The notes below the pieces were generated by a model. That model had not been told where the DNA came from. It ran no database searches and saw nothing but the letters and a program-made list of their open reading frames with translations. Position numbers and translations under genes: made by a program. Shown here in pieces: positions 22,614 through 39,288 of a stretch of DNA of 64,000 bases. Positions within the stretch are counted from its first letter, which is position 1; every line of letters begins with the position of its first letter. The DNA comes from Candidatus Omnitrophota bacterium (GTDB taxonomy: Bacteria; Omnitrophota; Gorgyraeia; Gygaellales; Profunditerraquicolaceae): NCBI GenBank assembly GCA_026387335.1, contig JAPLLX010000004.1, positions 189,485-253,484 of the forward strand. The letters are read 5' to 3'.

Positions 22614-23480
22614 TTAAAACCCCTGGAACATCTTACCTTGGGTAAACTGCAGGAATATGGGCCCGCCGATAATAATGCCTATGACCGGCAGGATACAAAA
22701 AATCAAAGGAAGGAGAATTTTAATTGGAGCTTTCATGGCAAAACGCTCGCCGCGGTGAAAACGCTGCAGACGGGCATCTTCAGAAAGCGTCGCAAAAGCT
22801 TCGGCAACCGGGGTCCCCATGCGTTCAGCCTGAACCAAAGTCTGGATAAAAGAGTTCACTTCCTGAATATTTAGCCTTTTGGCCATATCTTTTAAGGCCT
22901 GGGTGCGGGATTTTCCCCACTGGATTTCTTCCAAAACAAAGGCCAACTCTTGGATCATCGGGTTAGTCGAAACTCCCTTTTTAATTAACCATTCTATTGC
23001 CGCGACAAAATCTAGCCCTGCGTCCACGCACAAACTCAATAAATCTATTGTTTCGGGAAGCACCCTGGCAATAGCATATTTACGCTGGCCTATTCTTTTG
23101 TTCAGCCATATTTCCGGCAGCAGATACCCTAAGACAAGCGCTACAACAAATCCTATTGGCCCAATCTTGCCCAAGACAAAAGGGACAAGCATAACTAACG
23201 CCGCGGTAAACAATAATTTGAAATTGATAAACTCCGTCGGAGAAAGCCTTAAATGGGCGGCAGTCAATCTCAATTTAATCTTTGCATCTAAGTTTAATTT
23301 ATCCAGAATAACCGCGGTAAAAGGAATGACGCCGGCCAGAAAACTGGTCTTAAAGCTTTTGCTCCTGGTTGTTTCCGGGGTAAAAGCCGGCTTTGCCCCG
23401 CCTACCCGAGGCATAGACCTTATCCCAATCACTATAAGTACAACCGCAGCCACTAAAAATAAGAAAATCAAAAAAAGCAT
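22614..23480 (-). CDS. tadC: Tad pilus inner-membrane platform protein TadC-like (T2SS F domain)
   Basis: 288 aa, 3 TM regions, GspF-type domain (…LPETIDLLSLCVDAGLDFVAAIEW…TLVQAERMGTPVAEAF…). Confidence 0.75.
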   Translation of the reverse strand: MLFLIFLFLVAAVVLIVIGIRSMPRVGGAKPAFTPETTRSKSFKTSFLAGVIPFTAVILDKLNLDAKIKLRLTAAHLRLSPTEFINFKLLFTAALVMLVPFVLGKIGPIGFVVALVLGYLLPEIWLNKRIGQRKYAIARVLPETIDLLSLCVDAGLDFVAAIEWLIKKGVSTNPMIQELAFVLEEIQWGKSRTQALKDMAKRLNIQEVNSFIQTLVQAERMGTPVAEAFATLSEDARLQRFHRGERFAMKAPIKILLPLIFCILPVIGIIIGGPIFLQFTQGKMFQGF

Positions 23481-23490
23481 CTATTCTCCT

Positions 23491-24366
23491 TTAGACATCT
23501 ATTTTGCTGAATTTATAGATTAAAAATATCCCCACTGCCTGCAAACAAACTGCTGTTATTAAGAGTGTCCGGCCTAACTCCGAGTTAAACATAATATCAA
23601 AGTGATTACGGTTAAAACTTAAAACCCAGGCCACAAAGATAAACGGCAAAGCCGACATAATTATCCCCTGAAGTTTGCCCTGGAGAGTAAGGGTTTTAAT
23701 GCTTTCCTTTAATTTCCGGTTGTCCCGCAGGGTAATGGATAGATGGGCTAAAACCTTGGTTAAATCTCCGCCGGTCTCTTTAGACACAAGAATGGAATTA
23801 ATGATTAAATCCAACTCTTCCAGGTGCATCCTATCATGTAAATGCTTAAGGCTCTCTTCCAGAGGAACTCCGATTTTATTTTCTCTTAAGACCAACCCGA
23901 ATTCCTGAGAAAAAGGCGCCGGGACCTCTTCTACTACTACTTCAAGAGCCTGCATTAAAGAAAGCCCTCCTTTGAGCGAAGAAGAAAGGACCATTATCCC
24001 GTCAGGAAGCTGGTTTTGAAAACGCAAGCGGCGTTGGTTTTTTAAATTCTTGATAATTATTGAAGGAATGATAAAACTGACTAGTCCGGCAAGCAGGGAT
24101 AAACCTAAATTTCTTAAGAAAAAAAATGCCAACATACCGATAACCAGAGGCGTAACTGTATACCACAAGACCAATTTCTGGCGGTTGACCTCAATAAACA
24201 TTTTATCCAGCTGCTTCTCTGCTTCCGCTACCTTTTGAGTATGCAAGATGCTAGCCCGCTGCAGAAATGCAGGAAGAAGCTGGCTGCCGATTAATACCAT
24301 TGCGGCGGCGATTAATCCTAAAATAATCAATAGTTGCATAAACAAATCTCCAGGGACGGTTCTCAA
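23491..24366 (-). CDS. tadB: Tad pilus platform protein TadB-like (T2SS F domain); the true start is probably the ATG at about 24339 (MQLLIILG...)
   Basis: GspF-type domain (…GIMVLSSSLKGGLSLMQALEVV…KETGGDLTKVLAHLS…). The track start is a TTG inside an upstream hairpin. Confidence 0.75.
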   Translation of the reverse strand: MRTVPGDLFMQLLIILGLIAAAMVLIGSQLLPAFLQRASILHTQKVAEAEKQLDKMFIEVNRQKLVLWYTVTPLVIGMLAFFFLRNLGLSLLAGLVSFIIPSIIIKNLKNQRRLRFQNQLPDGIMVLSSSLKGGLSLMQALEVVVEEVPAPFSQEFGLVLRENKIGVPLEESLKHLHDRMHLEELDLIINSILVSKETGGDLTKVLAHLSITLRDNRKLKESIKTLTLQGKLQGIIMSALPFIFVAWVLSFNRNHFDIMFNSELGRTLLITAVCLQAVGIFLIYKFSKIDV

Positions 24367-24420
24367 GTTAATCTTAAAGTGTCCCCTAATTAAGGGACAC
24401 TTTTGCTTTGAGTTGAGAAC
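24352..24420 (-). terminator. Nested stem-loop immediately downstream of an flp pilin gene and upstream of tadB; candidate attenuator/terminator
   Basis: Outer inverted repeat agggacggttctcaa / ttgagaaccgtccct with inner inverted repeat aaagtgtccc-ctaattaa-gggacacttt. Confidence 0.5.
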
Positions 24421-24425
24421 CGTCC

Positions 24426-24587
24426 CTATTTACTGTATTGCCGGCCAAAACCAAAATTATCCCCGGCATCCCGCCATTTTCCGCTTAAAGAGCGCTGGAA
24501 ATAAAGCGCCATTCCGATTAATGCCGCTATGACTATCGCTATTAGAAGCGCATATTCCAGGGATAGAAAACCAGTTTTTTTATTCAT
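24426..24587 (-). CDS. flp: Flp-type pilin (53 aa), MNKKTGFLSLEYALLIAIVIAALIGMALYFQRSLSGKWRDAGDNFGFGRQYSK
   Basis: Unlisted (under 60 aa). G/FLSLEY processing motif with E+5/Y+6, then a hydrophobic helix. ATGAATAA overlap with the stop of the upstream gene. Confidence 0.7.
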   Translation of the reverse strand: MNKKTGFLSLEYALLIAIVIAALIGMALYFQRSLSGKWRDAGDNFGFGRQYSK

Positions 24588-25155
24588 TATTCAAAGCGTC
24601 ATTGCGACTACGAGGTGAAACTGAAACAGGAAGTAATTTTGCTTTTAAGGTGATTGCTTCGCCGGACTTCGTCCTTCTCGCAATGACATCTGGATAACTA
24701 CCTTTCCATTGCAAGGAGGTCAATCTCTTTTTTCCCGAGTCTGAGAGGGTAAATAATAAAGTTTTATTGTGGCCTTGATAATCCGCGGCGACAATTGTCT
24801 GGTTATCAACCTTATTGTAAATACGCCAATTAACAAATGCTCTAAATTTCCCTCCTGCTCCTTGAAAACCCCGGGAAAAACTCTGAATAAATGCCTTTTT
24901 ATAACCTACCCTTTGTTTCTCGCCGGTAGACTGTTGATATTCCCGGCTGACATCTACCTGTAAGGCATTGAGGTTTTCCCAATCAATATATTTCTGGACC
25001 CCATAACGGCCATTCACTAAGTCGCTAAAGATAGCCCGGCATAGGTTGACATCCCCGGTTTTTAGCTGGAAGATAAACAAAAGGAAAACAATGATAATTC
25101 CGGCCAGAATTGTGTATTCTAAAATCGGGGTATCTTTTTTGTCTTTATTTATCAC
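24580..25155 (-). CDS. TadE-like pseudopilin/pilus assembly protein
   Basis: N-terminal ...TPILEYTILAGIIIVFLLFIF (TadE-like N-terminal segment), 191 aa. Confidence 0.6.
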   Translation of the reverse strand: MINKDKKDTPILEYTILAGIIIVFLLFIFQLKTGDVNLCRAIFSDLVNGRYGVQKYIDWENLNALQVDVSREYQQSTGEKQRVGYKKAFIQSFSRGFQGAGGKFRAFVNWRIYNKVDNQTIVAADYQGHNKTLLFTLSDSGKKRLTSLQWKGSYPDVIARRTKSGEAITLKAKLLPVSVSPRSRNDALNNE

Positions 25156-27356
25156 TGTGTTAATCCCACTGTATCGTAACTATAATAGGCCTTGCTCTTT
25201 TTAGTAATTATACCACTAAAGAAGGGATTCCACATCCCTAAACTTACTCTTCCGGATTTTAGCTCTTTGTCTTTAGGCTCCTGCTTGGTTATCTGTACCC
25301 AACAATTACCATCATCAGTATAATCTACCATGCGTATACAAATTGTCTTTGACCATCTGCCTCCGCTTTCCGTTTTAATCGTCCTGGCTAACTGGTAAGG
25401 GCCGACTCCGACTTTTATACTGTGGTCGCCCCGGCTATCCGTCCAACTGTAAGTTGCCGGGTTCAGGCCGCCGTAACCGCTTTCTAGCGCGCTATAAGCA
25501 TTCTCCATATCCTTAACGTATTGTTTAATCGCATCCTGAAAACCGCTAATCTTGCTAATCAAACTATCAATGTCATTTAAAGCAGGGGTAACTTCATCAT
25601 CTATATTATAATCCAAGCTGCCTCCCTGAAGAGTAAAGTTCAATTTACAGGGTAGGGGGCTGATTTCCGGCCCGGAACTGACAATACAATCGTTGGCGCA
25701 GTAAGTGCTGTTGCAGGGCTGGCACGTTGGACTTTCATCTCCTATAGAGCCAAAAGTTCCTACTTTGCAGGAAGGGAGCTGGTTTCTTTTTGCTATAATT
25801 TCCGTTTTCCAATCTGAAAGGTACCCCTTTACTTCTCCTAAAGTATAATAATAATCCGTAATTGTATTGCCATCTTCGGTTTTCTTCCCGGTATCTTGAT
25901 TATAGAAAATCTTGATGTAAGTCTGCCACTGGGCGGTTAACTGGTTAATATCTATTTTTTCTATTGCTTCGCTGTCGGCGATAAAGCTTTTAAACCCGCT
26001 GACTATAGCGTCAAAAGAGCCGTCATTTTTAGGATTCCAGAAATCCGGGTTTAAGGCCCGGGCTATTCTGGCAATGGAGCCGTCCTGTGTAATATCCTTT
26101 GTGTCCCCTAACTTGGAAAGCGGACCTTGGATTTCAGTTTGAATATAATCCTCAGAATCTTTTAGGGTTCCGTTAAAAAAGGAACTGGTGATACTCTGTA
26201 AAGTAGGAATAACGCTTTTTAAATATTTCATCCGGCCGTTCCAATAATATAGAAAATGCGATACCTTGTCATCAATTTTGCCATCCCCGCTTAAATCATC
26301 GAAATCTATATCTTTGTTCGGGTCATCCACGGTCTGGGAAAAAACCTGCAATAATATGCTCTCCCGAAAATGGTCATAATCCGGCAAACCGTTTAACATC
26401 CGGACTGCCGCGGAAAAAGCTGCGGCCTGATTCTGCTCAGCAACGTAGGCATTGTAAAGATTTGAACTAGCAGATAATGTCATAGCGGCTGCTGCGCTAA
26501 GACTTGGAGCTATAGCAACACCTCCTGCTATTACGGTTGAACCTGTAGGTATGGCTGTACCTGCAGCCACTGTAGTTATCGGTACATTAGCAGGAACGAT
26601 CGTTACTCCCGCAGCTGTATAACTAGTCCCTGCTTCTAGAGTTAACTGACTATTCGCTGCCATAGTTATTTCCGATCCTCCCACAACTTCTGCTCCTCCA
26701 TTTACTGCTACTACACCTCCTTCGGAACCAGCTACTATAGTTTCCCCTCCTTCAGCTACCAGTGTTCCTTCCGCTACCTCTGTTAATTCTGCACCTTCGA
26801 GAACAATTGCACCGTCCTCCGCGGCCACCGCCGTACCAAAAGAACCATATGCAGCTCCAATTGCTGCGCCAATCATAAAACCAGTAATGGCTCCTGTTGC
26901 AATATTCCCTCCTGTTGCAGCAGCGCCAACAGCGCCTCCAACAAGACCTCCAGCAGCGCCTATAGCGGTGAACGCTGCTAATAAACCTGCAGCGGACCAA
27001 CCTACAGGATTCCAACACATAGCTACGGCAACTACAGCTAAGACTGCTCCGACAATAGCGCCTATAATACCGCCAAACCCCCCAGCGCCGCTTTGGCACT
27101 TGCAAGTAGTATTGCCTAATGATTTGTATAAACCATAAGAACGGGTGGCTAATTGCGAGGCTAAAGAAAGGCTGGCAGAATCCGCGACATTAGAAAGATT
27201 AGTGCTGGAAAGAGAAAGCTGGCCTAAATTTACCGTAGTTAAGATCATAATCAGGATAACCACAATCATTAAAATAAGCAGGGTGGAGATCTGGCCTTGG
27301 GGCTTGTCGTCTTTTAAGTTACCGAGAGAAAATTTTTTATAAAAACTATTGAGCAT
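25152..27356 (-). CDS. Large TadG-like pilus-associated protein with N-terminal TM anchor, long Gly/Ala-rich repeat region and Cys-rich C-terminal region
   Basis: 734 aa. N-terminal ...ISTLLILMIVVILIMILTTVNLGQ. The 26400-27100 region is G/A-rich low-complexity. C-terminal ...CKVGTFGSIGDESPTCQPCNSTYCANDC. Confidence 0.55.
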   Translation of the reverse strand: MLNSFYKKFSLGNLKDDKPQGQISTLLILMIVVILIMILTTVNLGQLSLSSTNLSNVADSASLSLASQLATRSYGLYKSLGNTTCKCQSGAGGFGGIIGAIVGAVLAVVAVAMCWNPVGWSAAGLLAAFTAIGAAGGLVGGAVGAAATGGNIATGAITGFMIGAAIGAAYGSFGTAVAAEDGAIVLEGAELTEVAEGTLVAEGGETIVAGSEGGVVAVNGGAEVVGGSEITMAANSQLTLEAGTSYTAAGVTIVPANVPITTVAAGTAIPTGSTVIAGGVAIAPSLSAAAAMTLSASSNLYNAYVAEQNQAAAFSAAVRMLNGLPDYDHFRESILLQVFSQTVDDPNKDIDFDDLSGDGKIDDKVSHFLYYWNGRMKYLKSVIPTLQSITSSFFNGTLKDSEDYIQTEIQGPLSKLGDTKDITQDGSIARIARALNPDFWNPKNDGSFDAIVSGFKSFIADSEAIEKIDINQLTAQWQTYIKIFYNQDTGKKTEDGNTITDYYYTLGEVKGYLSDWKTEIIAKRNQLPSCKVGTFGSIGDESPTCQPCNSTYCANDCIVSSGPEISPLPCKLNFTLQGGSLDYNIDDEVTPALNDIDSLISKISGFQDAIKQYVKDMENAYSALESGYGGLNPATYSWTDSRGDHSIKVGVGPYQLARTIKTESGGRWSKTICIRMVDYTDDGNCWVQITKQEPKDKELKSGRVSLGMWNPFFSGIITKKSKAYYSYDTVGLTQ

Positions 27357-27370: not shown

Positions 27371-27754
27371 TTATTGCCCGAAAATATTTAATTTCGGATA
27401 TTTGCTTTGGTCAGACTCATCTACCTGGACTTCGCTTCCGCTATTTCCGGCATTCACCCTTTGGGCTTCGTAGTCCTTTTGCCTTTGCACCAGGCTTCTA
27501 TTCATCCAGAGAAATAACTGCAATGCCCCGAATAATAAGATAAAAACCACTACTAAACTGGCAGCTAATTCCAAAGAGACTTGCGCAGCTTTACCACCCA
27601 GAGTTGCGGGAATCAACTTTTTCCTGCGAAACTTCACTAACAACCTCCTCAGTATTGGTAGCGGCGCTGGTTGAACCATAAGGCTTAGTAATAATTTTTC
27701 TTTTGGTCTGCGTCTTCCAGTCAATATTATCCGTCGTGGTAATGCCTGACGCAT
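27371..27754 (-). CDS. Short TadE-like protein; the true start probably lies internal at about 27610 (the track ORF overlaps the upstream gene)
   Basis: ...AAQVSLELAASLVVVFILLFGALQLFLW. The N-terminal 50 aa of the track ORF overlaps 27591..28619 in another frame. Confidence 0.45.
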   Translation of the reverse strand: MRQALPRRIILTGRRRPKEKLLLSLMVQPAPLPILRRLLVKFRRKKLIPATLGGKAAQVSLELAASLVVVFILLFGALQLFLWMNRSLVQRQKDYEAQRVNAGNSGSEVQVDESDQSKYPKLNIFGQ

Positions 27755-28619
27755 CTTCGGTCTTTCTTAAGGTATTATCGGTTAAGGTCTTCTGTTCATA
27801 ATCCTGCTGTAACCCCATAGCTTTTAAGCCGCCAAAACTAAAGAGCTGCTCTAATGCCGGGAAATTATATGTGTGGTTTACGCTATCTGTTTCCTGATAA
27901 TTGGCGCAATACCAGGGAATGTTCATTGGTTGAGCGCAGGCGCTGCAGCTTGCTGAAGGGTCCCGGCTGCATTCTTTTACGCAGGCATCCGAATCCACAA
28001 TCATCCGGCACTGTTTAACCGCGCTGCCATAATCTACGATTTCTCCGGCGCAGGAATCAATGATACGGATATTTTTACTAGGTTGGGAGCAGATGGTGTC
28101 TTCCGGTTCTCCGGTATTAGGATTAATTGACGTATTCTCTTCTCCTAAACACTCTCCGTCACCTGTATTCCAGACATTTCCGCCGCCGTAGATCACTTGA
28201 TACCTGCCTAAGCTGCCTTCCGGGACATTAGTTTCATCCCTAAACCCGGCAGTGGTATAGGTAAATTCCTTGCCGTTGATATTTACCGTTACCCGGGGTA
28301 ATTCGCTCTCCGTATCAGCGGTTTCGCCTAATCTATAGTCGCGGGCAATGCCTCCGGCTGAGCCGGTCATCGGAGTAACCGAACCTACGCCAAAAGTATC
28401 GGAAGGATTAGGGATATGTTTATCGCTGATTACTATATTAGAAATAGAGGTGCCCGGCTGGTTTACTGCGTGGGTTAAAGACTTCCTAAATGCCTGCTGC
28501 ATCATTTTCTGCTGGTAATTATACCTTAAGCCGTAACTAATAAGAACACCTAAAAGCATAATGATTATTGCCCCAAAAATCGCTACTTCTAATAAAGATT
28601 CTCCCTCTTTTTTCATCAT
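27591..28619 (-). CDS. TadE/TadF-like pseudopilin (342 aa)
   Basis: MMKKEGESLLEVAIFGAIIIMLLGVLISYG... N-terminal pilin-like segment followed by a Cys-containing globular domain. Confidence 0.55.
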   Translation of the reverse strand: MMKKEGESLLEVAIFGAIIIMLLGVLISYGLRYNYQQKMMQQAFRKSLTHAVNQPGTSISNIVISDKHIPNPSDTFGVGSVTPMTGSAGGIARDYRLGETADTESELPRVTVNINGKEFTYTTAGFRDETNVPEGSLGRYQVIYGGGNVWNTGDGECLGEENTSINPNTGEPEDTICSQPSKNIRIIDSCAGEIVDYGSAVKQCRMIVDSDACVKECSRDPSASCSACAQPMNIPWYCANYQETDSVNHTYNFPALEQLFSFGGLKAMGLQQDYEQKTLTDNTLRKTEDASGITTTDNIDWKTQTKRKIITKPYGSTSAATNTEEVVSEVSQEKVDSRNSGW

Positions 28620-28927
28620 TCCTCCGGCGAGATATGCTCGGTTCCGGAACGGTGCTCTTCCTGAGAATTAATATCAGTAGTTGTTGTAGTTTTATATCTA
28701 TCGTCCACCTCAACAGTATTAGTCTGCGTAGTTATATCGCTTTTCTGCGTAATGGTAATATCTGAAACCGTATTTTTAGGTTCATAATGCTGCGCGCTTA
28801 ACTCATCCGCGCCCTGGCGCAACCTTCCCTGAAGGCCCCGGCGGATATAAACCTGCATTGCCAATAACGCGGCAATAATAGCAAATATGACTATGGCGTA
28901 TTCCAGGACACTTTGGGCTTTGCGCAT
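28616..28927 (-). CDS. Flp-type pilin paralog with Thr-rich C-terminal extension
   Basis: MRKAQSVLEYAIVIFAIIAALLAM...TTTTDINSQ. Confidence 0.65.
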   Translation of the reverse strand: MRKAQSVLEYAIVIFAIIAALLAMQVYIRRGLQGRLRQGADELSAQHYEPKNTVSDITITQKSDITTQTNTVEVDDRYKTTTTTDINSQEEHRSGTEHISPEE

Positions 28928-28928
28928 T

Positions 28929-29255
28929 TTATTTCTCCCGGGTGGAAACTGAAGCCGAGCTTCCGCTGCCTGTAGTAACCGCGCTGAAATCGCTACTCTG
29001 GCCGCCGCCCTTTTCTATTCTCTTCCTCTGGGTTATCTCTGACTGCCGGCTCACCGCCGAAGAGGTCTTAATCCCTTTAAGCGGGTCTATTTCTTCAGCA
29101 TCTTTTTGGTTGCCTGCTTCATCTGCTGCTATCTTGACCACGGATTGTATCCCCCGGCGAAAATACATGGCCATACCTGCTAAAGCCAGGGCTACCAAAC
29201 CCAATACTATGGCATATTCTAAAATACTCTGGGCTTTGCGCATTTTAATCCGCAT
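28929..29255 (-). CDS. Flp-type pilin paralog
   Basis: MRKAQSILEYAIVLGLVALALAGMAMYF... Confidence 0.65.
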   Translation of the reverse strand: MRIKMRKAQSILEYAIVLGLVALALAGMAMYFRRGIQSVVKIAADEAGNQKDAEEIDPLKGIKTSSAVSRQSEITQRKRIEKGGGQSSDFSAVTTGSGSSASVSTREK

Positions 29256-29592
29256 CCGGCGCTGAGCCGGTCTTTTCCCATCCGCTACGGGTAGTTGTCT
29301 GGTCTATGGATGTATCCGGAAAGCCTGTAGCAGAGGACCCGCTTTTAACCTCAATAGTATCTGACTCCCGGTAATAAGGATCATATTGTTGTTTGATCTT
29401 CGTAAAATTAGGAACACCTTTATCTATAGCAGTATTTTTTATCTCGGAGATCAAATAATCTGCGCCCCCTTTATATCTAGCCTGGAGGCTGCGTTGGATA
29501 TAGATACGCACGGTCATAATTATCGCTACTACCGCAGCCAAACACAAAGCAACTTCCGTTAAACTCTGCCCCCGAGTTTTTACTCTGCGCAT
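29245..29592 (-). CDS. Flp-type pilin paralog
   Basis: ...RGQSLTEVALCLAAVVAIIMTV... Confidence 0.55.
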   Translation of the reverse strand: MRRVKTRGQSLTEVALCLAAVVAIIMTVRIYIQRSLQARYKGGADYLISEIKNTAIDKGVPNFTKIKQQYDPYYRESDTIEVKSGSSATGFPDTSIDQTTTRSGWEKTGSAPDAD

Positions 29593-30885: not shown

Positions 30886-31002
30886 CCTGATACCTCCATA
30901 TCAGGGTTAACCCCTGCCGTCATTATTTAAGCGTTATATTTAAATAATATCACCTTGCCCAACAAGCGTCAAGACTATTAAAACCTGCACGGAAAACGCT
31001 TT

Positions 31003-32883
31003 CTATTCAGTAGTCAGATATAACTTGTGCCCGCTGGATAAAACAACCTCTTTCTCGTTTATCCGGCGGCATAAATAGCTTAAGTCTTTGTCAAAAGCAT
31101 ACGCCGGAGGTAGGACAAATTTCATTAAACAGCTTCTTTTCTTTCGGGTTGGTTCCGCGATCAAATTATAGAACCGTTCTCTGGTGGCTGTAAACTCCTT
31201 ATCTTCATATCCTGAGGGCAATAGATGCCAGCGCACATAGGCATCTATTGCCGCCAGGTAGCTGGCGAACAAGTCTTTAACCGTTGAAACCTGAGCCAGC
31301 CCTAAGTTTATATTTTCCGCGCTAAAATAACGCTGGGAATTGGCAGTATAAGTAAAAAGCTCTATTTTACGGCTGTAATCCTGAAAGGCCTCTTCCAGAT
31401 TAGGCCAATGATTAAAATATAGAGCAACCAGCTCTTCGGCCTTTTTAGTCCCGACGCTAAAATTGCTTAATAAGACCAAGCGGGTTTTTTCAGTAAGGCT
31501 TGTTTTTAGAACGCAGCCGTTAAGGACTATCTGTTTAGCTTTAGTGGGTTGCCTTAACTCCATCTCTATATCGGCGATATAAAGATCTTTATTCTGCTCC
31601 TCCAGGCGAAAGAGTCTAAACTCGCCTAGATTCTTGACTCTGCGGCATTCGGTAAATTGCCAGGGCCAGACGCCGAAAACAAAAAAACGTTTTTTAGCCT
31701 GATTTACCGGCAAAACCTCTAACTCTTCAAATTTGTTTCCCGAAATCACCAGGTTAGTGATCGCATTCCCTCGACCATCCAGCGCTTCCAAAAGATTAAA
31801 GAATTCCTGCGAAGGCATATCATATCCGGGGGCGTTAAAAATTACCAGAGGATAATCTTCGTTGAAATATTGGTTGATATACTTTTTTAGGTTATGGATA
31901 GGAGAGGCAAAATCATACGGGATGTGCGGGGAAGACCAGACCGAATACATTGAGGCATCCAGATAGAGATTGGCTCCGTCGGAGAGGATGACCTTGACGC
32001 ATCTGGCCTCTTGTAAGCTTGAGGCGATGATCCGGGAAATATCCAGATTAATGACTTTGATATTCTCTATCTTTTCTAAATAACCGGATAATTTATCTAT
32101 AAATGCTTTTTCGGCTTTTTCCTGAAACAAGGGCAGATAAATGAGGTTTTCCACTAAATCTTCCAGATTGCCTGGCGCATCAGGAAGCCGGCTTTTAATT
32201 GCTGCGGCAATGAGTTTGCTTGCGCCTATAATATAGTCTGCCGCCTCCAGCAATATAATTCCGCTGTCTTCTATTTGATGAAATTTTTCAACATTGGCTA
32301 CTGGATGGGCTGTTGCTTCTACTTGCGCTTTCCTCTCTTCCTCTTCCCGAGCCTTGCTTAATTCTTCTTCTTTAGCTTTTCGCTCTGCTTCTTCCCGGGA
32401 TTCTTTAGCTAATCTTTCCTCTTCAGCAATCCTCGCCCATTTCTCTTCTTCAATCTTTCTGGCTACTTCTTCCTCGGATTTGAGTTTTTCTTCTTGCGCC
32501 AAAAGCTCTTCTTGTTCTTTTTTGACTACTTCCTCTCTAGCCTTTTTTTCAGTTTCTTCTTTTACTTTCCTCTCTTCTTCTTCCCGAGCTTTTTCCTCTT
32601 CTTCCTGGCCTGTTCTCTCTACTTGCCGGACAGATGCATCCTCAAGCAGAATAGGTAAATTAGGCATAGCAATATGGCGCCTCTTCTTTTTAGGAGTCCT
32701 ACCTACGGGCGCGCTTAACCCGGCTTCTTTTATAATCATATTGATGCTGGATTTAGATAGTTCTATCTTGAAATTATCCAAAACAAGCGCGGTCAACTTA
32801 CGGCAGCTTAAGGAAGGGCTATTGTTCTTTTGCTCTAGAATAAAATCTCTTACTTCCGGTTTAATTTTGTAAATTACACCCAT
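31003..32883 (-). CDS. Hypothetical protein: N-terminal transposase-like HTH, long E/K/R-rich coiled-coil segment, large C-terminal domain of unknown function
   Basis: MGVIYKIKPEVRDFILEQKNNSPSLSCRKLTALVLDNFKIELSKSSINMIIKEAGL (HTH), then about 120 aa of EEERKAKEE repeats, then roughly 400 aa with no family recognisable by eye. Confidence 0.5.
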   Translation of the reverse strand: MGVIYKIKPEVRDFILEQKNNSPSLSCRKLTALVLDNFKIELSKSSINMIIKEAGLSAPVGRTPKKKRRHIAMPNLPILLEDASVRQVERTGQEEEEKAREEEERKVKEETEKKAREEVVKKEQEELLAQEEKLKSEEEVARKIEEEKWARIAEEERLAKESREEAERKAKEEELSKAREEEERKAQVEATAHPVANVEKFHQIEDSGIILLEAADYIIGASKLIAAAIKSRLPDAPGNLEDLVENLIYLPLFQEKAEKAFIDKLSGYLEKIENIKVINLDISRIIASSLQEARCVKVILSDGANLYLDASMYSVWSSPHIPYDFASPIHNLKKYINQYFNEDYPLVIFNAPGYDMPSQEFFNLLEALDGRGNAITNLVISGNKFEELEVLPVNQAKKRFFVFGVWPWQFTECRRVKNLGEFRLFRLEEQNKDLYIADIEMELRQPTKAKQIVLNGCVLKTSLTEKTRLVLLSNFSVGTKKAEELVALYFNHWPNLEEAFQDYSRKIELFTYTANSQRYFSAENINLGLAQVSTVKDLFASYLAAIDAYVRWHLLPSGYEDKEFTATRERFYNLIAEPTRKKRSCLMKFVLPPAYAFDKDLSYLCRRINEKEVVLSSGHKLYLTTE

Positions 32884-32945: not shown

Positions 32946-32950
32946 AGTTA

Positions 32951-32997
32951 AATAGGGACAGCGACCGTTTTTTAAACGGTCGCTGTCCCTATTAAAG
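32951..32997. repeat. Hairpin repeat family copy 1 (AATAGGGACAGCGACCGTTT-loop-AAACGGTCGCTGTCCCTATT); terminator-like, downstream of the DUF192 gene
   Basis: Perfect 20-bp stem seen in sequence. Copies 2 (33345-33410) and 3 (43186-43248) share the same stem sequence. Confidence 0.7.
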
Positions 32998-32998: not shown

Positions 32999-33340
32999 TT
33001 ACTTTAAAATTAGTTGGTCGCCGAGGCCGGTGGAAGTGAATTTTATTGTGCCAAGGGGAAGCTCGATAACAAACCTGCTTTGCGCAGAGATAGGGCTTAA
33101 ACGAAACGGCATAAGCTTAGGAATCGCCTTAATTACTGTATTGTTTTTACTTACAAACAGGAGATCGATCGGAAAACGCATAAAACAGGTGTGCACTGAA
33201 TTACAGGGGTTCAGCACAAGGGCCTGGCCATAATGAAATTCTCTCTTGCCCAATAAACCCTTAGCCCGTTTTAAGAAAGTATCAGCCATAATGGCGTTGT
33301 CAGCCAATAGGGTTTTGCGCGTCGCGTTAAATATTTTCAT
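32999..33340 (-). CDS. DUF192 (COG1430) family protein
   Basis: ...GLLGKREFHYGQALVLNPCNSVHTCFMRFPIDLLFV..., characteristic of DUF192. Confidence 0.65.
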   Translation of the reverse strand: MKIFNATRKTLLADNAIMADTFLKRAKGLLGKREFHYGQALVLNPCNSVHTCFMRFPIDLLFVSKNNTVIKAIPKLMPFRLSPISAQSRFVIELPLGTIKFTSTGLGDQLILK

Positions 33341-33410: not shown

Positions 33411-35570
33411 CTAAGGAGCCTGGAAAATATTATCTGAAAGCTTGATGCCTTTTATTTTGATTTCTTCAATTACGGAAGGTTTATATCCGCTAGCCTGGAA
33501 GTTACCTAATACATTGCCTTGGGAGTCAATACCGGTCTGCTTAAAAACAAAGATGTCGCTTAAATTTATATGCAGTTCGTCCTTCATCCCGGTTACCTCG
33601 GTTACCTGTATAACTTTTCTTGAGCCGTCGGATAATCTGGCAGTATGAATAATCAGGTCTATTGCCGAAGCGATCATCTCCCGTATCGCTCGCATCGGCA
33701 GCTCTACCCCACCCATTAGAATCATCGAATCAAGCCGGGATAAGACATCTTGCGTGGAATTAGAGTGGATTGTGGTCATTGAACCGTCATGCCCGGTATT
33801 CATCGCCTGAAGCATATCCAGCGCTTCAATGCCGCGGCATTCGCCTATGATTATACGGTCAGGCCGCATCCTGAGCGTATTCCTGAAAAGGTCTCTTATG
33901 CTTACGCCTCCCCTGCCTTCAATATTGGGAGAACGGGACTCCAGCCTGATCCAATGGCGCTGGTCAAGTTTTAATTCCGCCGCGTCTTCTATCGTGATAA
34001 TGCGTTCGCTCTCGGGGATAAACCCGGAAAGGACGTTTAATACCGTAGTTTTTCCACTTCCTGTCCCGCCGGAGACAATTATATTTTTTCTGCAAAGGAC
34101 GCAGGCCCGGATAAATTCCGCCATATCGGAACTTAAGGCCTTAAGCTGGATTAAATCTTCAATCTTAAATTTTTCTTTCCGGAATTTCCTTATTGTCAGG
34201 CTTGGGCCGGTTAAGGCCAAAGGCGGGATTATGGCGTTGACGCGGGAACCGTCGGGAAGGCGGGCGTCCACCATCGGCACAGATTCATCTACCCTTTTAC
34301 CGATGGGAGCGATGATTCTTTCAATAATGGTTTTGACCTGATCATTGGAAATAAACTTTTTACTGGTTAACTCTATCTTACCCTTTCTCTCAATATATAT
34401 TTCATCTTTATTATTGACCATGATATCGGTAATATCCGGCATCATTAACAGGTCTTCCAACGGGCCAAACCCCAAGGCTTCATCCAGGATCTCCTTCACC
34501 AGTTTTCTGCGCACCTCCGGGGAAGAAATGAAACTTCCTGCTTCTTCTACTAAAAAGCGGCTGACCATAGCCTCGGCCCTGCTCCTTAATCCTTGCGCTT
34601 TTTTAGTATCGCTAAAAACTTTTAAATCCAGCCTCTTAATGTTCAGTTCATCTATAAGCCGGCTATGTATTTTGCTCTTAAGAATTATTATATCGTCTGC
34701 GCGCTCATCTTTGGCGGCCAGCTCTTCAATCAAAGGCTCGGTTAAGCCTTGCTCTTCCCATAATTTTGCCGGTTTTTCCAAGGCCAGCTGCTGCACGCGT
34801 AACTGGTCTATCTCCTGATTTTGGGTAAAGATATTCTTATCCTTGACCAACTGTTCGCTAAGTTTATTTATTGCCTGGCTAAATCTTGAGCGGGGAGCAT
34901 CGACTATCACGGGTATACCCCGGTTTACGGCTAGCCCGACGGCTTTGCCTTCGGAAGGGATCTGATAAAGAATATCGCAAGCTAAGTTTACCCTTATCTC
35001 CTGCCAGCTGATACTAGAGATAGATTCTGCCCTATTCAGGATTATCTTCACCATAGACAAAGGAAATTGCAGAAACTGCAGCGTATCTATGGTCCATTCG
35101 GCCTGGTATATGGAAAGTATGTCGGGGGTGACTACTAAAATAATGAGGTTGGCCTGGTTTAAGGTAGCGATGAGGACATCGCTAAAACTCTTTCCGGCAT
35201 CAACAACTATATAATCATAATCTTTTTCCAGTAAGCTAAACGCCTCTTTGACATTCTCTGGCTTAAGGTGTGGGGCCTGGGGCGGCTTGGTTATTCCGCA
35301 TAATAAATCAACCCCCGCATAACTGTGGCTCAAAAAATCATTCTTATTTGCTCCCGACGGATCTTTCCTATAAGACTGGATAAGGTCAACCATATTCTTA
35401 TCCGGTTTAATATCCAGCATGCGCGCCATATCGCCGACGGCCTGCAGATCCAAATCCACCAAGCAAACTTTTTGCGCCTGTTCTTTGGCTAAAGAAACAG
35501 CGAGGTTAGTGGCGATCAGGGTCTTGCCTACTCCGCCTTTAGTGCTGAATATTACTATTTTCCTGGACAT
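33411..35570 (-). CDS. cpaF: Fused CpaE/TadZ-like (ParA/MinD-type) domain and CpaF/TadA secretion ATPase
   Basis: N-terminal KIVIFSTKGGVGKTLIATNLAVSLA (deviant Walker A of the ParA/CpaE family). C-terminal ...IVSGGTGSGKTTVLNVL...GECRGIEALDMLQAMNTGHDGSMTTIHSNS (VirB11/CpaF ATPase). Confidence 0.8.
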   Translation of the reverse strand: MSRKIVIFSTKGGVGKTLIATNLAVSLAKEQAQKVCLVDLDLQAVGDMARMLDIKPDKNMVDLIQSYRKDPSGANKNDFLSHSYAGVDLLCGITKPPQAPHLKPENVKEAFSLLEKDYDYIVVDAGKSFSDVLIATLNQANLIILVVTPDILSIYQAEWTIDTLQFLQFPLSMVKIILNRAESISSISWQEIRVNLACDILYQIPSEGKAVGLAVNRGIPVIVDAPRSRFSQAINKLSEQLVKDKNIFTQNQEIDQLRVQQLALEKPAKLWEEQGLTEPLIEELAAKDERADDIIILKSKIHSRLIDELNIKRLDLKVFSDTKKAQGLRSRAEAMVSRFLVEEAGSFISSPEVRRKLVKEILDEALGFGPLEDLLMMPDITDIMVNNKDEIYIERKGKIELTSKKFISNDQVKTIIERIIAPIGKRVDESVPMVDARLPDGSRVNAIIPPLALTGPSLTIRKFRKEKFKIEDLIQLKALSSDMAEFIRACVLCRKNIIVSGGTGSGKTTVLNVLSGFIPESERIITIEDAAELKLDQRHWIRLESRSPNIEGRGGVSIRDLFRNTLRMRPDRIIIGECRGIEALDMLQAMNTGHDGSMTTIHSNSTQDVLSRLDSMILMGGVELPMRAIREMIASAIDLIIHTARLSDGSRKVIQVTEVTGMKDELHINLSDIFVFKQTGIDSQGNVLGNFQASGYKPSVIEEIKIKGIKLSDNIFQAP

Positions 35571-35574: not shown

Positions 35575-37233
35575 TTATTTTAACTGAAAGGTTACCGGAA
35601 CATCGATCCAAAGCTCCCTCTCTTCTATAGAGGCAGGGAAGGGAGGGTAAGAACTTATCTCCTTGGCCATAGCAACTGCCTGGTCATTCAGAAGCTGATA
35701 ATCCGAAGGCTCTTTGATAGCGACATCCAAAAGTTCACCGGTATATAAAACATGCAGCCTTAATTTTACTGTCCCCTGATAACCGCTATCTTTGATCTCC
35801 TGAGGATAAGTAAAATTGGCCAATATGCGTTCTTGGATAATCTTAGCGTATTGCGTGGTGGGATCAACCGGCTGTTCTTCCTGCGCAGGGGCTTTGGTTG
35901 TTTCCTGCGGAATATTTTGGGGCTGCGTTTTAGGCGCCTTATCCTTTTCCAGAGAGGCTATCGTCGGTGTAAGGATAATAAAGAGTTCGGTATCCACTTT
36001 TTGGCCCGTACCTCCGCCTGTTTTAGTAACTTTTTGCCTAAAGAAAGCGCCTAAAATAGGGACATCGCTTAAGAAGGGGGTCCGGGTGACTGTTTCTTCT
36101 TTCTTTTTCCGGATTAAACCTCCGATAACCATACTTTGTCCGCTATCCAGAAAAAGTTCGGTGGAAGCGCTGCGCTTGGACAAAGGATAAGCCTGGGCAG
36201 TAGTAGTGGTAGTGCTAGCGCTGGTTGTCCCGATTGTCTGGACTGTCCCTATATCGCTGACTTCTACATTCACGCCCAATTTTATCCGTTTATCGTCGGT
36301 TAAGACGGGTTTTATCTTCAGTTTAATCCCATACTCTTTATATTCAACGCTGGTTCCCTGATTACCTGTAGTCGCGGCTATTTGAGTAGTAAATATCGGC
36401 TGTTCTCCTCCGACGATCAATTCCGCTTCTTTGCCGCTCTGGCAGGCGATACGCGGACGGGAAAGAAGCTGGGCCTTACCTTCCTGAATCAAAGCATCCA
36501 GCTTAAGCGTAAAAGGCGTGGCTGTTCCGCCTGAGGAGCGCATAATATCAGCTACCTTAAATACCTTGCCCCAGGTTGTCCCGGCTGCGGCAAGCGCGGG
36601 AGAGCCGATTTCCGTAAAAGTAATTGAGCCGGGCCAGGTAAAGCCTAAGGTATTGGTCGCGTCTTTGTTTAGTTCCATGATCTGCACATCTATATCTAAT
36701 AATGCTTCTTCCTCTTTGACCTGGACTAAATCTACCAGCTTGTCTTTTAAACCGGCTAAAACAGTAAAGATCCTTTCCCTATCCTGTGATGTCTTAACCC
36801 TGCCTAAAATAAGGATCTTCCCTTCATCTTCTTCCGCCTGAGAATAAACCTCAGGGAGATCGAGTTTCCCCAACAGATTATCTGCCCGCATTTTTAACGC
36901 GTTAACATCTTCGGCTAATACTTTTATCTTATATGACTGTTCGCCAAAATTATCCCAATATACCAAAGTAGTGGTCCCCGGAGATTTAGGAGTTAAGGTT
37001 ATACCTTGTTTAGTTACATTAGCAACGTCAACTATGGCGGGGTTACCGATAACAATACGGCTGGGGTTGTTTGTAGACATAGTTCTAAATCCGCCCATAT
37101 ATATTCTGATGGTTTCGGAGGTATTATCTACAGCAGTATCTAAAGTATAAATATTCCCCGGCTGAATAACGCAAGCCGCGCCGGCTAAAAAAAGGAACAA
37201 AAATATCTTCTTCATTATCCTTCCTTCTCTCAT
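35575..37233 (-). CDS. cpaC: Secretin (RcpA/CpaC-like) with C-terminal TonB-C-like domain
   Basis: Secretin core ...SGQSMVIGGLIRKKKEETVTRTPFLSDVPILGAFFRQK...ELFIILTP... C-terminal 90 aa ...GYQGTVKLRLHVLYTGELLDVAIKEPSDYQLLNDQAVAMAKEISSYPPFP... resembles the TonB C-terminal fold. Confidence 0.7.
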   Translation of the reverse strand: MREGRIMKKIFLFLFLAGAACVIQPGNIYTLDTAVDNTSETIRIYMGGFRTMSTNNPSRIVIGNPAIVDVANVTKQGITLTPKSPGTTTLVYWDNFGEQSYKIKVLAEDVNALKMRADNLLGKLDLPEVYSQAEEDEGKILILGRVKTSQDRERIFTVLAGLKDKLVDLVQVKEEEALLDIDVQIMELNKDATNTLGFTWPGSITFTEIGSPALAAAGTTWGKVFKVADIMRSSGGTATPFTLKLDALIQEGKAQLLSRPRIACQSGKEAELIVGGEQPIFTTQIAATTGNQGTSVEYKEYGIKLKIKPVLTDDKRIKLGVNVEVSDIGTVQTIGTTSASTTTTTAQAYPLSKRSASTELFLDSGQSMVIGGLIRKKKEETVTRTPFLSDVPILGAFFRQKVTKTGGGTGQKVDTELFIILTPTIASLEKDKAPKTQPQNIPQETTKAPAQEEQPVDPTTQYAKIIQERILANFTYPQEIKDSGYQGTVKLRLHVLYTGELLDVAIKEPSDYQLLNDQAVAMAKEISSYPPFPASIEERELWIDVPVTFQLK

Positions 37234-38132
37234 TTAGATAAAGGCATCTTTTCTTTGCTTAAGCCTCTGTATATTTCAACATACTCTGTAGCCGGTGCGT
37301 CTTTGTCCTGGAACTTAGCTAATTCATTCTGGGCCGGCATAACATATCTGAATAATGTCTCCCAACTGGCGGGTTGGGTTGCCTGCATTTGAGAATCCGC
37401 CGGTGAACGCAGGGTGAGCCTCAACTTACCCTGTTCCTGGACAAAAGCAATGAGATTGGCTTCTTGAGGACCAAGGGCAAGGGTGATCAGCGGAGAATTT
37501 TCGCTTCTTCTCTCCGTCTCTTTCTTCCCGGCGCTGGCTGCGGAGATCGAACCTGTATCCTGTCCGACGGCCAAAACCAGGACATTCTGGAATAAAGGCA
37601 TCACCGCCATCTGACTTACCTGTTTACCGTCGGCAGTCTGCACCGGCACAGGGACAAGCGCCATTACATCAACATAATCTCCGGGTTTGATCATTCCGCC
37701 CAGTGCCGAAATATTATCTACTGATATGGTGATCGCCCTTTTGCCGACTGGCGTGCCTTCGGCTAAACCGCCTAATTGCCTGGGTTGGACTAATTTGCTT
37801 AAAGATATCTGTTCGCCTTTGGATATGGCTACAACCGCGACCATCCCTAAAATCCTATCTGCCGAAGAAACTGCCTGCGGCTGGAGATATTGGTCGGGGA
37901 TAATAATTGTCTCCAGGCTTTCCGCCGCGATAGCTGCGCCGCGGGGGATGTCTTTATTGGCTATCAATACCTTGACTTCGTGCTTGGATATATTTTTTTC
38001 CAGGCTGGCTATCTTTTTTTTGGACTCATCAATCACCTGCTGGCGCTGCTGGTCAATATAGGCCTTAGTCATAAATACGGCCATTAAAGCCAGGACAACA
38101 CCGATTATTATGATGATCTTTTGCCTTTGCAT
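37230..38132 (-). CDS. cpaB: Flp pilus assembly protein CpaB/RcpC-like (SAF domain)
   Basis: N-terminal TM anchor; ...VKVLIANKDIPRGAAIAAESLETIIIPDQY...; positioned next to the secretin. Confidence 0.65.
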   Translation of the reverse strand: MQRQKIIIIIGVVLALMAVFMTKAYIDQQRQQVIDESKKKIASLEKNISKHEVKVLIANKDIPRGAAIAAESLETIIIPDQYLQPQAVSSADRILGMVAVVAISKGEQISLSKLVQPRQLGGLAEGTPVGKRAITISVDNISALGGMIKPGDYVDVMALVPVPVQTADGKQVSQMAVMPLFQNVLVLAVGQDTGSISAASAGKKETERRSENSPLITLALGPQEANLIAFVQEQGKLRLTLRSPADSQMQATQPASWETLFRYVMPAQNELAKFQDKDAPATEYVEIYRGLSKEKMPLSK

Positions 38133-39038
38133 TTACTTTATCTCTCCCTCGTAAAATTCCAATTTTGAGTCGCGGGAAAGTTTCCCCAGCAGATCTTCAA
38201 TTTTTTTCTGTTGCTTTAAAAACGTCAGGCCTCTTTTGATATCATCCCACATTTCATTAAGGGATTTTTGTTTTCCGCCGCGCTTGACTTCCAGCTTGAC
38301 GATACAATAACCTTCAGGGCTTTTAAAAATACTGCTGATTTTACCTGTCTCCAACGAATCGGAAAAAGCTACGGCATCAAATTGAGCGGACTTTTGGCCC
38401 TTTTTAATAAACCCTAAATCCCCCGCGTCTTTGGCGCTGGCGGATTTAGAGCGATCTTTGGCTAAAGTAGCAAAATCTGTTCCCTGTAAAAGCAGGATCA
38501 GGATATCTTTGGCATCCTGCTCAGAACTAACCACTATTTCGCGTAACTGCCTCTCTTCGGGCTCCTTAAGCTGATCTTTATAATTATTATAATAATCCTC
38601 TATTTCTTTGGAACTTACCTCTACTTTTTCCGCTTCCTTACGGACCAGTTCCATCACTAAAAGATCCTGTTTGGTTTTTTCCAGCGCCTGAACAATTTCT
38701 TCGTTGCGTTCCAGGCCCCTGTTTAAAGCTTCCTGATAAAGAAGTGTGCGGCGGACCATTTCATTCTTAAGGTATTCTATTTTTTTATCCCGGGTGGTGA
38801 TCTTGGCTTCCGGCTTATCGTCGGGAACCACGGAATTGTAAGCTTCTATTTCCTTATTTAAATCATCCAAGGTTATAGGTTGATTATTGACTTTGGCTAC
38901 CACTGTCCCCTTAACCGAGGCGGTAGGAATAAAGGCCTCTTTAAGTTTAGGCTTAGCGAGACCGATTTTATCGCAGCCTATTAAAAGCGCTAAAATAAAA
39001 ATGCAGATTGACGGCAGAACTATCCGGTATTTCATCAC
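38133..39038 (-). CDS. SurA-like periplasmic chaperone / parvulin-type peptidyl-prolyl isomerase
   Basis: Lipoprotein-like N-terminus (LLIGCDK). PpiC domain ...DLGFIKKGQKSAQFDAVAFSDSLETGKISSIFKSPEGYCIVKLE... Confidence 0.65.
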   Translation of the reverse strand: MMKYRIVLPSICIFILALLIGCDKIGLAKPKLKEAFIPTASVKGTVVAKVNNQPITLDDLNKEIEAYNSVVPDDKPEAKITTRDKKIEYLKNEMVRRTLLYQEALNRGLERNEEIVQALEKTKQDLLVMELVRKEAEKVEVSSKEIEDYYNNYKDQLKEPEERQLREIVVSSEQDAKDILILLLQGTDFATLAKDRSKSASAKDAGDLGFIKKGQKSAQFDAVAFSDSLETGKISSIFKSPEGYCIVKLEVKRGGKQKSLNEMWDDIKRGLTFLKQQKKIEDLLGKLSRDSKLEFYEGEIK

Positions 39039-39045
39039 CCCTCCT

Positions 39046-39288
39046 CTATTCTTTTTTTATTTCGTTAATTATACGGATCAATAAATCAGCGATCTTAGCA
39101 ATAAGGAAAAGAAAAAAGAAGAAAAAGGTGTACACTACCAAGACTATAGCGCCCATCCAACGGGAACTGCCGGGTGCCGCGCCAAAAATAATGGACAAAC
39201 CCCCTAAAATTCCGAAAAATAAAAAAATCCAGGCAGCGACTTTCACCACTGTACTGGAAGCTTTCAAAAAACCTAAATGTTCACGCAT
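39046..39288 (-). CDS. Small two-TM membrane protein (80 aa)
   Basis: Hydrophobic ORF, first gene of the Tad-locus transcription unit. Confidence 0.4.
   Translation of the reverse strand: MREHLGFLKASSTVVKVAAWIFLFFGILGGLSIIFGAAPGSSRWMGAIVLVVYTFFFFFLFLIAKIADLLIRIINEIKKE

Follow-up and report, generated by a model that had tools for sequence, protein, structure and literature searches.

A Tad-type gene cluster of Candidatus Omnitrophota with a large, unannotated family of Flp-like pilins next to a giant gene

The 64,000-nucleotide (nt) stretch analysed here, hereafter the window, belongs to the Candidatus Omnitrophota assembly GCA_026387335.1 (contig JAPLLX010000004.1, positions 189,485 to 253,484 of the forward strand) and carries at 22614-39288 one co-directional minus-strand gene cluster that combines the machinery of a tight adherence (Tad) system with a series of small pilin-like genes (Table 1). 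Pfam searches recovered a TadA/CpaF ATPase with a ParA-like TadZ/CpaE ATPase fused to it, separate TadB and TadC proteins, an RcpA/CpaC secretin and RcpC/CpaB, which bears out both the Tad type and the machinery gene list (tadB, tadC, CpaE-CpaF fusion, secretin, CpaB) proposed in a first-pass annotation made from the letters alone. No TPR or other domain matching the outer-membrane lipoproteins TadD and RcpB was found among the open reading frames (ORFs) of the locus. The closest CpaEF loci to that of the window are from Omnitrophota, and a 626-amino-acid (aa) protein encoded within the cluster is 100% identical to NTW18_04230 of a Candidatus Omnitrophica bacterium at NCBI. Loci used for comparison carry L numbers; the relative L081, a 511-kb ENA contig, has about 95% nucleotide identity to the window and the same gene order.

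Several machinery genes have features of their own. The N-domain of the secretin (T2SS-T3SS_pil_N, PF13629) is typical of Tad systems, and its C-terminal TonB_C domain (PF03544) spans residues 473-551 (window 35575-35850), a fusion shared by L001-L003, L081, L083, L084, L086 and L087, that is, by all Omnitrophota loci examined plus the Planctomycetales-labelled metagenome-assembled genome (MAG) L003. The SurA-like isomerase is likewise kept in all Omnitrophota loci examined, and full-length relatives of the TadZ-TadA fusion occur in many phyla. As for the TadE/F/G-like pseudopilins of the first-pass annotation, the TadG-like protein was borne out by its PF13400 domain, and the 88-aa and 342-aa proteins lack a PF07811 match and are linked to the TadE-like proteins of other loci by profile alignment with hhalign (90% probability with an E-value of 1.8e-6 for the 88-aa protein, 75% for the 342-aa protein). 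Homologues of the 191-aa protein were found in close relatives only.

The small genes of the cluster are nine ORFs (24426-24587, six within 28616-30580, 30537-30695 and 30712-30885), named here by the length of their products. At least ten had been counted at first; that number falls to nine. The 342-aa protein and the 88/127-aa protein share the same N-terminus and bring the total to 11 signature ORFs. Two starts were corrected, of 30344-30580 to 30520 (58 aa) and of 28929-29255 to 29243 (104 aa), both in agreement with the gene calls of L081 and with Shine-Dalgarno (SD) sequences, AGGAGGT in the former case. The nine small ORFs are genuine genes. All eight of the tandem array are gene-called in L081, the array genes are spaced 1-24 nt apart on one strand, and most small ORFs have strong SD sites (GGAGGT for p57) or appear translationally coupled. 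Between the window and L081 the eight tandem pilins differ by 84 synonymous and 11 nonsynonymous changes, a pooled ratio of nonsynonymous to synonymous substitution rates (dN/dS) of 0.034, which is a constraint like that on the fusion ATPase (0.045). For p57 the ratio is 0.07. Faster evolution is seen in the 342-aa, TadG-like and 191-aa proteins, with dN/dS of 0.16-0.24 (0.16 for the 342-aa and 0.235 for the TadG-like protein). The ninth gene, p53, has a counterpart of 52 aa at the same place in L086. That the small ORFs might be chance ORFs, or small membrane proteins unrelated to pili, could be argued from their failure to reach the curated thresholds of PF04964 and PF04021, but purifying selection, SD sites, thousands of homologues, the confinement of signature ORFs to Tad loci and profile homology to Flp all speak against it; this explanation is scarcely credible and is already largely refuted.

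The nine products share a short basic leader, an Ala or Gly, usually Q-S-x-L-E-Y and then a hydrophobic stretch of about 20 residues. Relative to the putative cleavage site, Glu at +5 is present in 9/9 small ORFs and Tyr at +6 in 8/9, and the residue at -1 is Ala in six and Gly in three. A regular expression for this class III signature, run over six frames of the window, retrieved 11 ORFs within the locus and none outside it. Among 120 relatives of the pilins, 119 have a recognisable site, with Ala at -1 in 115/119, and Gln at +1 following a (K/R)(G/A) site in all 119 as well as in 8/9 window pilins, so that the A/QS site, first described as a departure from the usual cleavage site, is a signature of the whole family. 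Leaders in the family are 4-12 residues long.

Behind the common N-terminal helix the pilins fall into two length classes, with mature lengths of 47-51 aa in 4/9 and 96-121 aa in 5/9. The latter carry tails of 51-76 aa in which Ser and Thr make up 26-45% of residues compared with 10.8% in the housekeeping proteins of the window, confirming the earlier description of the tails as Ser/Thr-rich. They are not mere low-complexity sequence, however, since the motifs QYEPYY and RTGxQ are nearly invariant: the helix is followed, in this order, by Y-x-(K/R)-R-G-x-Q-G, by Q-Y-E-P-Y-Y, in which Q and P are invariant, and by R-T-G-x-Q. Because of these conserved motifs the tails, Ser/Thr-rich in composition, are nevertheless anchored. 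A profile search with the pilins yielded 421 clusters at 90% identity, none with a Pfam annotation, and their named sources are Candidatus Omnitrophota or Omnitrophica save for one Dehalococcoidia-labelled MAG. An exhaustive hidden Markov model (HMM) search among representatives at 50% identity returned 4,822 sequences at E <= 1e-3 and 1,623 at E <= 1e-10, mostly as matches over the whole profile.

The size of the pilin set was compared across 80 loci retrieved by their CpaE-CpaF fusion, to each of which the same regular expression was applied. The 76 Tad loci from outside the Omnitrophota contain 0-3 signature ORFs and at most 6, the high outliers being one unclassified MAG with six tandem short pilins and another with four. 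The Omnitrophota loci contain 11 (window), 11 (L081), at least 8 (L001, a truncated locus), 7-8 (L083 and L084, where two more genes escaped the expression), 10 (L086) and 10 (L087). The set in the window is thus unusually large for a Tad locus, as the first-pass annotation had remarked, and since 7-11 such genes are present in each of the seven Omnitrophota loci, pilin multiplicity is a trait of the phylum and not a peculiarity of the window. As a separate observation, the array of the outlier with six genes (L041, positions 716-2099, unclassified MAG SRR21487743_metabat2_78) consists of G/Q..EY Flp-like pilins of 52-66 aa, and L041 is the only non-Omnitrophota locus of the 80 with an array of comparable size.

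Reciprocal best hits tie individual window pilins to loci whose ATPase is only about 50-56% identical. Thus p52 has orthologues in a 47-aa pilin of L001 and a 54-aa pilin of L083, p58 is the orthologue of the first pilin in L083 and L084, p128 pairs with the 112-aa QYEPYY pilin and p103a with the 108-aa pilin of L083, and p103b and p115 pair with a 128-aa protein and a further counterpart in L001. The order in L001 is that of the window, with three short pilins followed by long ones. The first-pass annotation had read the varied family as a possible source of antigenic variation, and in that case alternative major pilins would be expressed singly by antigenic or phase variation; the many paralogues with divergent tails would fit such a scheme, as would a transposase-fold protein beside the array whose gene is inverted in one relative (L087). 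The evidence goes the other way: the pooled dN/dS is as low as that of the ATPase, orthologous subtypes are kept across distant genomes with CpaEF of about 50% identity, the genes form a tight operon on a single strand, inverted repeats that could mark an invertible switch were seen in the window neither beside the Tn5-like gene nor beside the pilin promoter, and no rearrangements at the array were seen among the window, L081 and L082. Variation of this kind is therefore highly improbable. Low dN/dS, reciprocal subtypes, close one-strand spacing and the lack of rearrangements instead point to paralogues that would be old, fixed, co-expressed and specialised subunits.

Downstream of the cluster, about 3 kb beyond tadC, begins a giant ORF whose product has a transmembrane segment at its N-terminus and, after it, a C39-peptidase-like region; counterparts of the ORF measure 34,628 aa in L081 (the orthologue), 14,733 aa in L083 and 30,621 aa in L086; the locus is co-inherited with this downstream giant surface protein. 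The cyclic di-GMP (c-di-GMP) aptamer in the leader of the giant gene is conserved in L081 (20016-20112), L082 (12082-12178) and L083 (19666-19758), and in L084 (9571-9701) and L087 (9515-9646) the first pilin gene is directly preceded by a c-di-GMP-I aptamer (RF01051). On the other side of the cluster a trio of FIST, histidine kinase and GGDEF genes is divergent from the Tad operon, with tRNA-Glu (39399-39475) in between; L087 has the whole trio next to the locus, and L081 and L083 have FIST there.

This arrangement invites a different explanation, namely that the locus is an exporter resembling a type II secretion system (T2SS), in which a short pseudopilus made of the many pilin-like proteins pushes the giant protein or associated hydrolases through the secretin. 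West-Roberts et al. (2023, bioRxiv 10.1101/2023.11.21.568195) offer this reading and describe the locus as type II secretion-like, the locus always precedes the giant gene, one major and several minor pseudopilins would follow the T2SS pattern, and the secretin carries the unusual TonB_C domain. Yet the components are of the Tad type (two half-size platform genes, RcpC, the TadZ fusion and TadG with PF13400), the pilins align to Flp and not to GspG, and a multi-transmembrane protein of 34,628 aa, which moreover has its own N-terminal transmembrane segment and C39-like region, is implausible as a secretin substrate. Since components and pilins are of the Tad/Flp type and the giant protein is an unlikely secretin substrate, we rate export below a Tad pilus and regard it as rather unlikely.

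We consider it probable that the locus encodes a Tad (type IVc) pilus machine, in its Omnitrophota form, with fixed, specialised pilins and a likely role in attachment. In such a machine the fused TadZ-TadA ATPase would serve as the motor and TadB/TadC as the inner-membrane platform, RcpC and the secretin would form the outer-membrane conduit with TonB_C as a probable periplasmic anchor, and the SurA-like prolyl isomerase may assist assembly. The filament subunits would come from one tightly packed operon that supplies four short Flp-like pilins (52-58 aa), five pilins of 103-128 aa with the common N-terminal helix and a Ser/Thr-rich tail, and TadE/F/G-like minor pilins. A peptidase presumably encoded elsewhere in the genome would probably cut after (K/R)(A/G), so that the mature pilins start with Gln (+1) and have Glu at +5. 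The short pilins of the p57/p58 type are the probable fibre shaft because they come first in the operon, have canonical length and are closest to the Flp models, and the long-tailed pilins, together with the faster-evolving 342-aa, 191-aa and TadG-like proteins, are probably accessory or tip subunits that contact the target surface. Glycosylation of the tails is possible. Control probably proceeds via c-di-GMP and is coordinated with the giant protein, because the FIST, kinase and GGDEF genes adjoin the locus and riboswitches stand before the giant gene in the window and before the pilin array in relatives. Attachment to a host or prey cell would be the likely function. A more elaborate version, in which a Tad filament of about eight fixed Flp-like pilins is processed by an archaeal-like Ala/Gln peptidase other than a TadV of the locus, pilins and giant protein form a c-di-GMP-controlled attachment module, and a domesticated Tn5-type protein acts as regulator or rearranging enzyme, appears quite doubtful.

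Several results weigh against the proposal of a Tad pilus. The best PF04964 (Flp/Fap) score among the nine small ORFs is 13.8 bits (p57) against a gathering cut-off of 32.2, so that the Flp HMM check that the first-pass annotation had set as its own refutation test formally failed; PF04021 (Class_IIIsignal) reaches at best 15.6 bits in the window against a cut-off of 23.7 (E 0.016-0.09), and NCBIfam gave noise on the small ORFs, with no pilin model at cut-off. The tail of p128 is predicted with low confidence by AlphaFold2 (mean predicted local distance difference test score, pLDDT, of 60.7 for the model), that is, with no confident tail fold. A TadV HMM found no prepilin peptidase in the window, giant ORF included, or in eight Omnitrophota loci (best E 0.014, on pilin helices), and Ala at -1 is unusual for substrates of bacterial A24 peptidases. 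An Rfam scan of window 30600-33200, ahead of the pilin array, found no riboswitch, the one in the window preceding the giant gene instead. Finally, the shaft and accessory roles suggested above are read only from gene order, length and substitution rates.

With regard to the pilins themselves, the missed Pfam threshold appears to reflect HMM coverage and not a lack of homology. In the family sample PF04964 matches 2/59 members, both below threshold, and the commonest weak Pfam match is PF04021 (29/59 members, all below threshold, best E 0.0047). On PF04964, Flp pilins taken as controls from other Tad loci reach 29-66 bits. A shift toward PF04021 and Flp1_like is also seen in G/Q(S/N) pilins of Elusimicrobiota, Bdellovibrio-like and unclassified loci, which suggests that the Pfam Flp model does not cover this branch. 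A direct hhalign comparison of 16 Omnitrophota with 24 canonical Flp pilins gave 96.1% probability and an E-value of 3.3e-9 over 49 columns, with positions -1, +1, +5 and +6 in register, and supports the earlier identification of the small ORFs as Flp-like pilins. In the AlphaFold2 model of p128, computed from a 59-sequence alignment, residues 9-50 form one long helix (pLDDT 79-94). From these comparisons we conclude that the small ORFs probably represent a divergent, unannotated branch of the Flp-type pilins.

The missing peptidase, which the first-pass annotation had already pointed out, was sought in three ways that all came back empty. Peptidase_A24 (PF01478) has no match in any ORF of the locus or the flanking window, a transmembrane scan found as polytopic membrane ORFs of the window only TadB, TadC, the TadG-like protein, a Na/Ca exchanger and a PEMT-like methyltransferase, and the TadV HMM mentioned above had been built from A24-like ORFs that a motif scan found in 25 other Tad loci. 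In control loci this HMM recovered two further TadV genes (E 1e-25 and 5e-23), and since it is empty in the window and in the eight Omnitrophota loci, the absence of a peptidase at the level of the locus appears conserved in the phylum. In the part of the supplement of Seymour et al. (2023, PMC10066038) that was consulted, tadV, cpaA and K02278 do not appear, and PilD (K02654) is given for two Omnitrophota genome entries, which is uninformative on the genome of the window. The DUF192 protein of the cluster was considered as a substitute peptidase and rejected, as it is a small soluble protein that co-occurs with TadV, for example in L005, L008, L036 and L048.

Compared with the canonical Tad/Flp systems (Aggregatibacter tad, Caulobacter cpa), the locus shares TadA/CpaF, TadB, TadC, RcpA/CpaC, RcpC/CpaB, TadZ/CpaE, TadG and short Flp-like pilins with Glu at +5 and Tyr at +6. 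It differs in having nine small pilins instead of 1-3, mostly Ala instead of Gly at -1, very short leaders, five pilins with conserved tails and none matching PF04964, in the fusion of TadZ to TadA and of TonB_C to the secretin, and in lacking TadV, TadD and RcpB. Archaeal pilins with class III signal peptides (PF04021), such as those of the Epd pili of Methanococcus that are processed by EppA, resemble the window pilins in the (K/R)(G/A) before the cut, Gln at +1, short leaders and the clustering of several small pilin genes, but the PF04021 matches of the window stay below the gathering score, and the host, a diderm bacterium, has a secretin and machinery of the Tad type. Gln at +1 was considered as a mark of specifically archaeal origin and ruled out, as it is also present in Tad pilins of several bacterial phyla, including Bacillota, Bdellovibrionota, Elusimicrobiota and others. 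Haloferax volcanii has six paralogous pilins, PilA1-6, with a shared hydrophobic domain; these are archaeal, encoded by dispersed genes and N-glycosylated. They are alike in combining a near-identical N-terminal helix with differing C-terminal parts on one machinery, and their redundancy has no evidenced equivalent in the window locus. In Bdellovibrio and like organisms Tad/type IVb pilins are needed for predation (Avidan et al., 2017, cited in Seymour et al., 2023), and according to the latter paper (PMC10066038) TadB/C of Bdellovibrio-like bacteria cluster phylogenetically with those of Omnitrophota. These small predatory or epibiotic bacteria also have G/Q..E pilins; the Bdellovibrio-like loci compared contain 1-2 signature genes, and some (L004, L009) encode TadV beside them.

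Table 1. Features of the Tad-type cluster and its surroundings in window coordinates. A slash in a motif marks the putative cleavage site.
Feature	Coordinates	Strand	Evidence and remarks
80-aa membrane protein, first gene of the operon	39046..39288	-	no Pfam match; same place in L081, L083, L084, L086, L087
SurA-like / PpiC-type peptidyl-prolyl isomerase	38133..39038	-	Rotamase_2, Rotamase, Rotamase_3, SurA_N_3
RcpC/CpaB	37230..38132	-	PF16976 at 3.4e-26; SAF domain
RcpA/CpaC-type secretin with C-terminal TonB_C	35575..37233	-	PF00263 at 1e-39; PF13629 at 2.5e-13; PF03544 at 9.7e-14
TadZ/CpaE-TadA/CpaF fusion ATPase	33411..35570	-	AAA_31/ParA/CbiA, residues 1-260; T2SSE (PF00437), residues 366-647, at 2.4e-64
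DUF192 protein	32999..33340	-	PF02643 at 3e-14
Terminator-like or REP-like hairpin just past the DUF192 stop	32948..32996		23-nt arms, 96% complementary, 3-nt loop
Conserved 626-aa protein	31003..32883	-	N-terminal helix-turn-helix (HTH), E/K-rich helix, Tn5 (IS4-type) transposase-like fold
Sigma-70-like promoter candidate for the pilin array	30944..30972	-	TTGACG-17-TATTAT, extended -10 TG, 10/12
p57, short Flp-like pilin, first of the array, candidate major pilin	30712..30885	-	MATG/QAAVEY; weak Flp_Fap and Class_IIIsignal matches
p52, short pilin	30537..30695	-	KKA/QSILEY; dN/dS 0.026
p58, short pilin, candidate major pilin	30344..30520	-	RNKA/QSTLEY; AGGAGGT SD
p128, long-tailed pilin, QYEPYY type	29935..30321	-	GKRA/QSTMEY; QYEPYY and RTGxQ; dN/dS 0.02
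p103a, long-tailed pilin	29599..29910	-	GKRA/QSTLEY; tail 45% Ser+Thr
p115, long-tailed pilin	29245..29592	-	KTRG/QSLTEV; QYDPYY motif; dN/dS 0.015
p104, long-tailed pilin	28929..29243	-	MRKA/QSILEY; dN/dS 0.028
p103b, long-tailed pilin	28616..28927	-	MRKA/QSVLEY; 0 nonsynonymous and 5 synonymous changes
342-aa minor (pseudo)pilin, TadE/F-like N-terminus	27591..28619	-	KKEG/ESLLEV and transmembrane helix
88-aa TadE/F-like minor pilin	27371..27637	-	GGKAA/QVSLEL; called as 88-aa gene in L081
TadG-like 734-aa protein	25152..27356	-	PF13400 at 2.6e-7, residues 21-64
191-aa protein, LEY and transmembrane N-terminus, D at -1	24580..25155	-	no Pfam or NCBIfam match
p53, short pilin directly upstream of tadB	24426..24587	-	KKTG/FLSLEY; weak Class_IIIsignal match
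TadB	23491..24366	-	PF00482 at 4e-18; likely start 24339 (282 aa, L081 gene call)
TadC	22614..23480	-	PF00482 at 4.4e-16
c-di-GMP-I-GGC riboswitch aptamer, leader of the giant gene	19724..19821	-	RF03167, 66.9 bits (gathering 59), E 1.2e-13
Giant gene, 5' part, downstream of the locus	1..19551	-	at least 6,517 aa, frame still open at the left edge of the window
FIST protein, histidine kinase, response-regulator-GGDEF (probable c-di-GMP input)	39528..43184	+	FIST/FIST_C; Response_reg and GGDEF

Two further conserved genes separate the fusion ATPase from the pilin array. Among the Tad loci with CpaE-CpaF fusions that were compared, 37/85, from many phyla, have a gene for a DUF192 (COG1430) protein, which in most cases comes right after tadC, and a role of DUF192 in Tad systems seems undescribed in the literature searched. 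The 626-aa protein has no match in Pfam, nor in the PDB by sequence. Its AlphaFold2 model has a mean pLDDT of 83, and the best PDB matches of this model in Foldseek are to Tn5 transposase (1mm8_A, E 7e-5, probability 0.99), with low TM-scores that are due to the multi-domain geometry. About 250 homologues were found, all named ones from Omnitrophota, and the gene appears to be single-copy; its place is kept in L081, L083, L084 and L086, and L087 has it in inverted orientation. D309, D355 and E508 are invariant or near-invariant in the alignment, which would be consistent with a putative catalytic triad, and a Y-S-R-K-I-E stretch resembles the YREK region of IS4. No terminal inverted repeats flank the gene. 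The protein may be a domesticated, vertically inherited transposase homologue.

The hairpin behind DUF192 was the only strong repeat found in an inverted-repeat scan. At the corresponding place, between DUF192 and the Tn5-like gene, four relatives carry a 160-aa Y1_Tnp (RAYT-like) gene that the window lacks (L083 7126-7799, L084 7091-7737, L086 9225-9900, L087 11646-12718), flanked by GGGACACCC-type inverted repeats. The promoter candidate of the pilin array is merely suggestive, because promoter and terminator scans of the region gave site counts not above those of shuffled sequences. Between tadC and the giant gene (window 20635-22536, minus strand) lie genes for an HTH_17-type small protein and Fic/Doc, a toxin-antitoxin-like pair, and for an OprB-family porin, which are kept in L081 and L082 but not in more distant loci. 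Farther away, an ORF of 344 aa (59554-60588, minus strand) that has a LAGLIDADG_3 domain and matches UPF0175 weakly is flanked on one side by a NifU-like gene and on the other by a gene with the C-terminal domain of methylene-THF reductase.

Loci of this kind have been described before. West-Roberts et al. (2023, bioRxiv 10.1101/2023.11.21.568195) place a conserved secretion-system locus, with more than 10 subunits, 5' of the giant genes of Omnitrophota; it contains gspD/E/F-like genes, rcpC and a conserved Rotamase_2 isomerase, and small class III signal peptide genes are already mentioned. Tad complexes have been reported from across the Omnitrophota by Seymour et al. (2023, PMC10066038), who also describe that these are expressed in Velamenicoccus archaeovorus. 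All features of the former kind are found in the window, from the Omnitrophota genome to the giant gene downstream and the gene set: the phylum, the secretin, the ATPase, two GspF/TadBC genes, rcpC, the Rotamase_2 isomerase, many small class III signal peptide genes and the position are shared, and there is no essential difference. Because the arrangement and the Tad complexes have already been reported by these authors, the locus is a member of a described kind and its novelty is modest. The searched portions of the two papers contain no mention of pilin subtypes, of the A/Q signature or of the tail motifs, nor of DUF192, the transposase-like gene, a prepilin peptidase or riboswitches, and the addition made here lies in a precise account of the pilin family, which is large and unannotated, and of components of the locus that those portions do not mention.

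Omnitrophota are uncultured, ultra-small and probably predatory or parasitic bacteria, and genomic clues to how they attack hosts come mainly from the giant genes together with the adjoining locus for a pilus or for secretion. The pilin family of this locus is large, strongly conserved and unannotated, with no Pfam model of its own, and current Flp/Tad HMMs under-detect pilins in the phylum. The features of the family given here, together with the c-di-GMP riboswitches and the conserved transposase-fold protein of the locus, sharpen the targets for proteomics and cryo-electron tomography on enrichment cultures.

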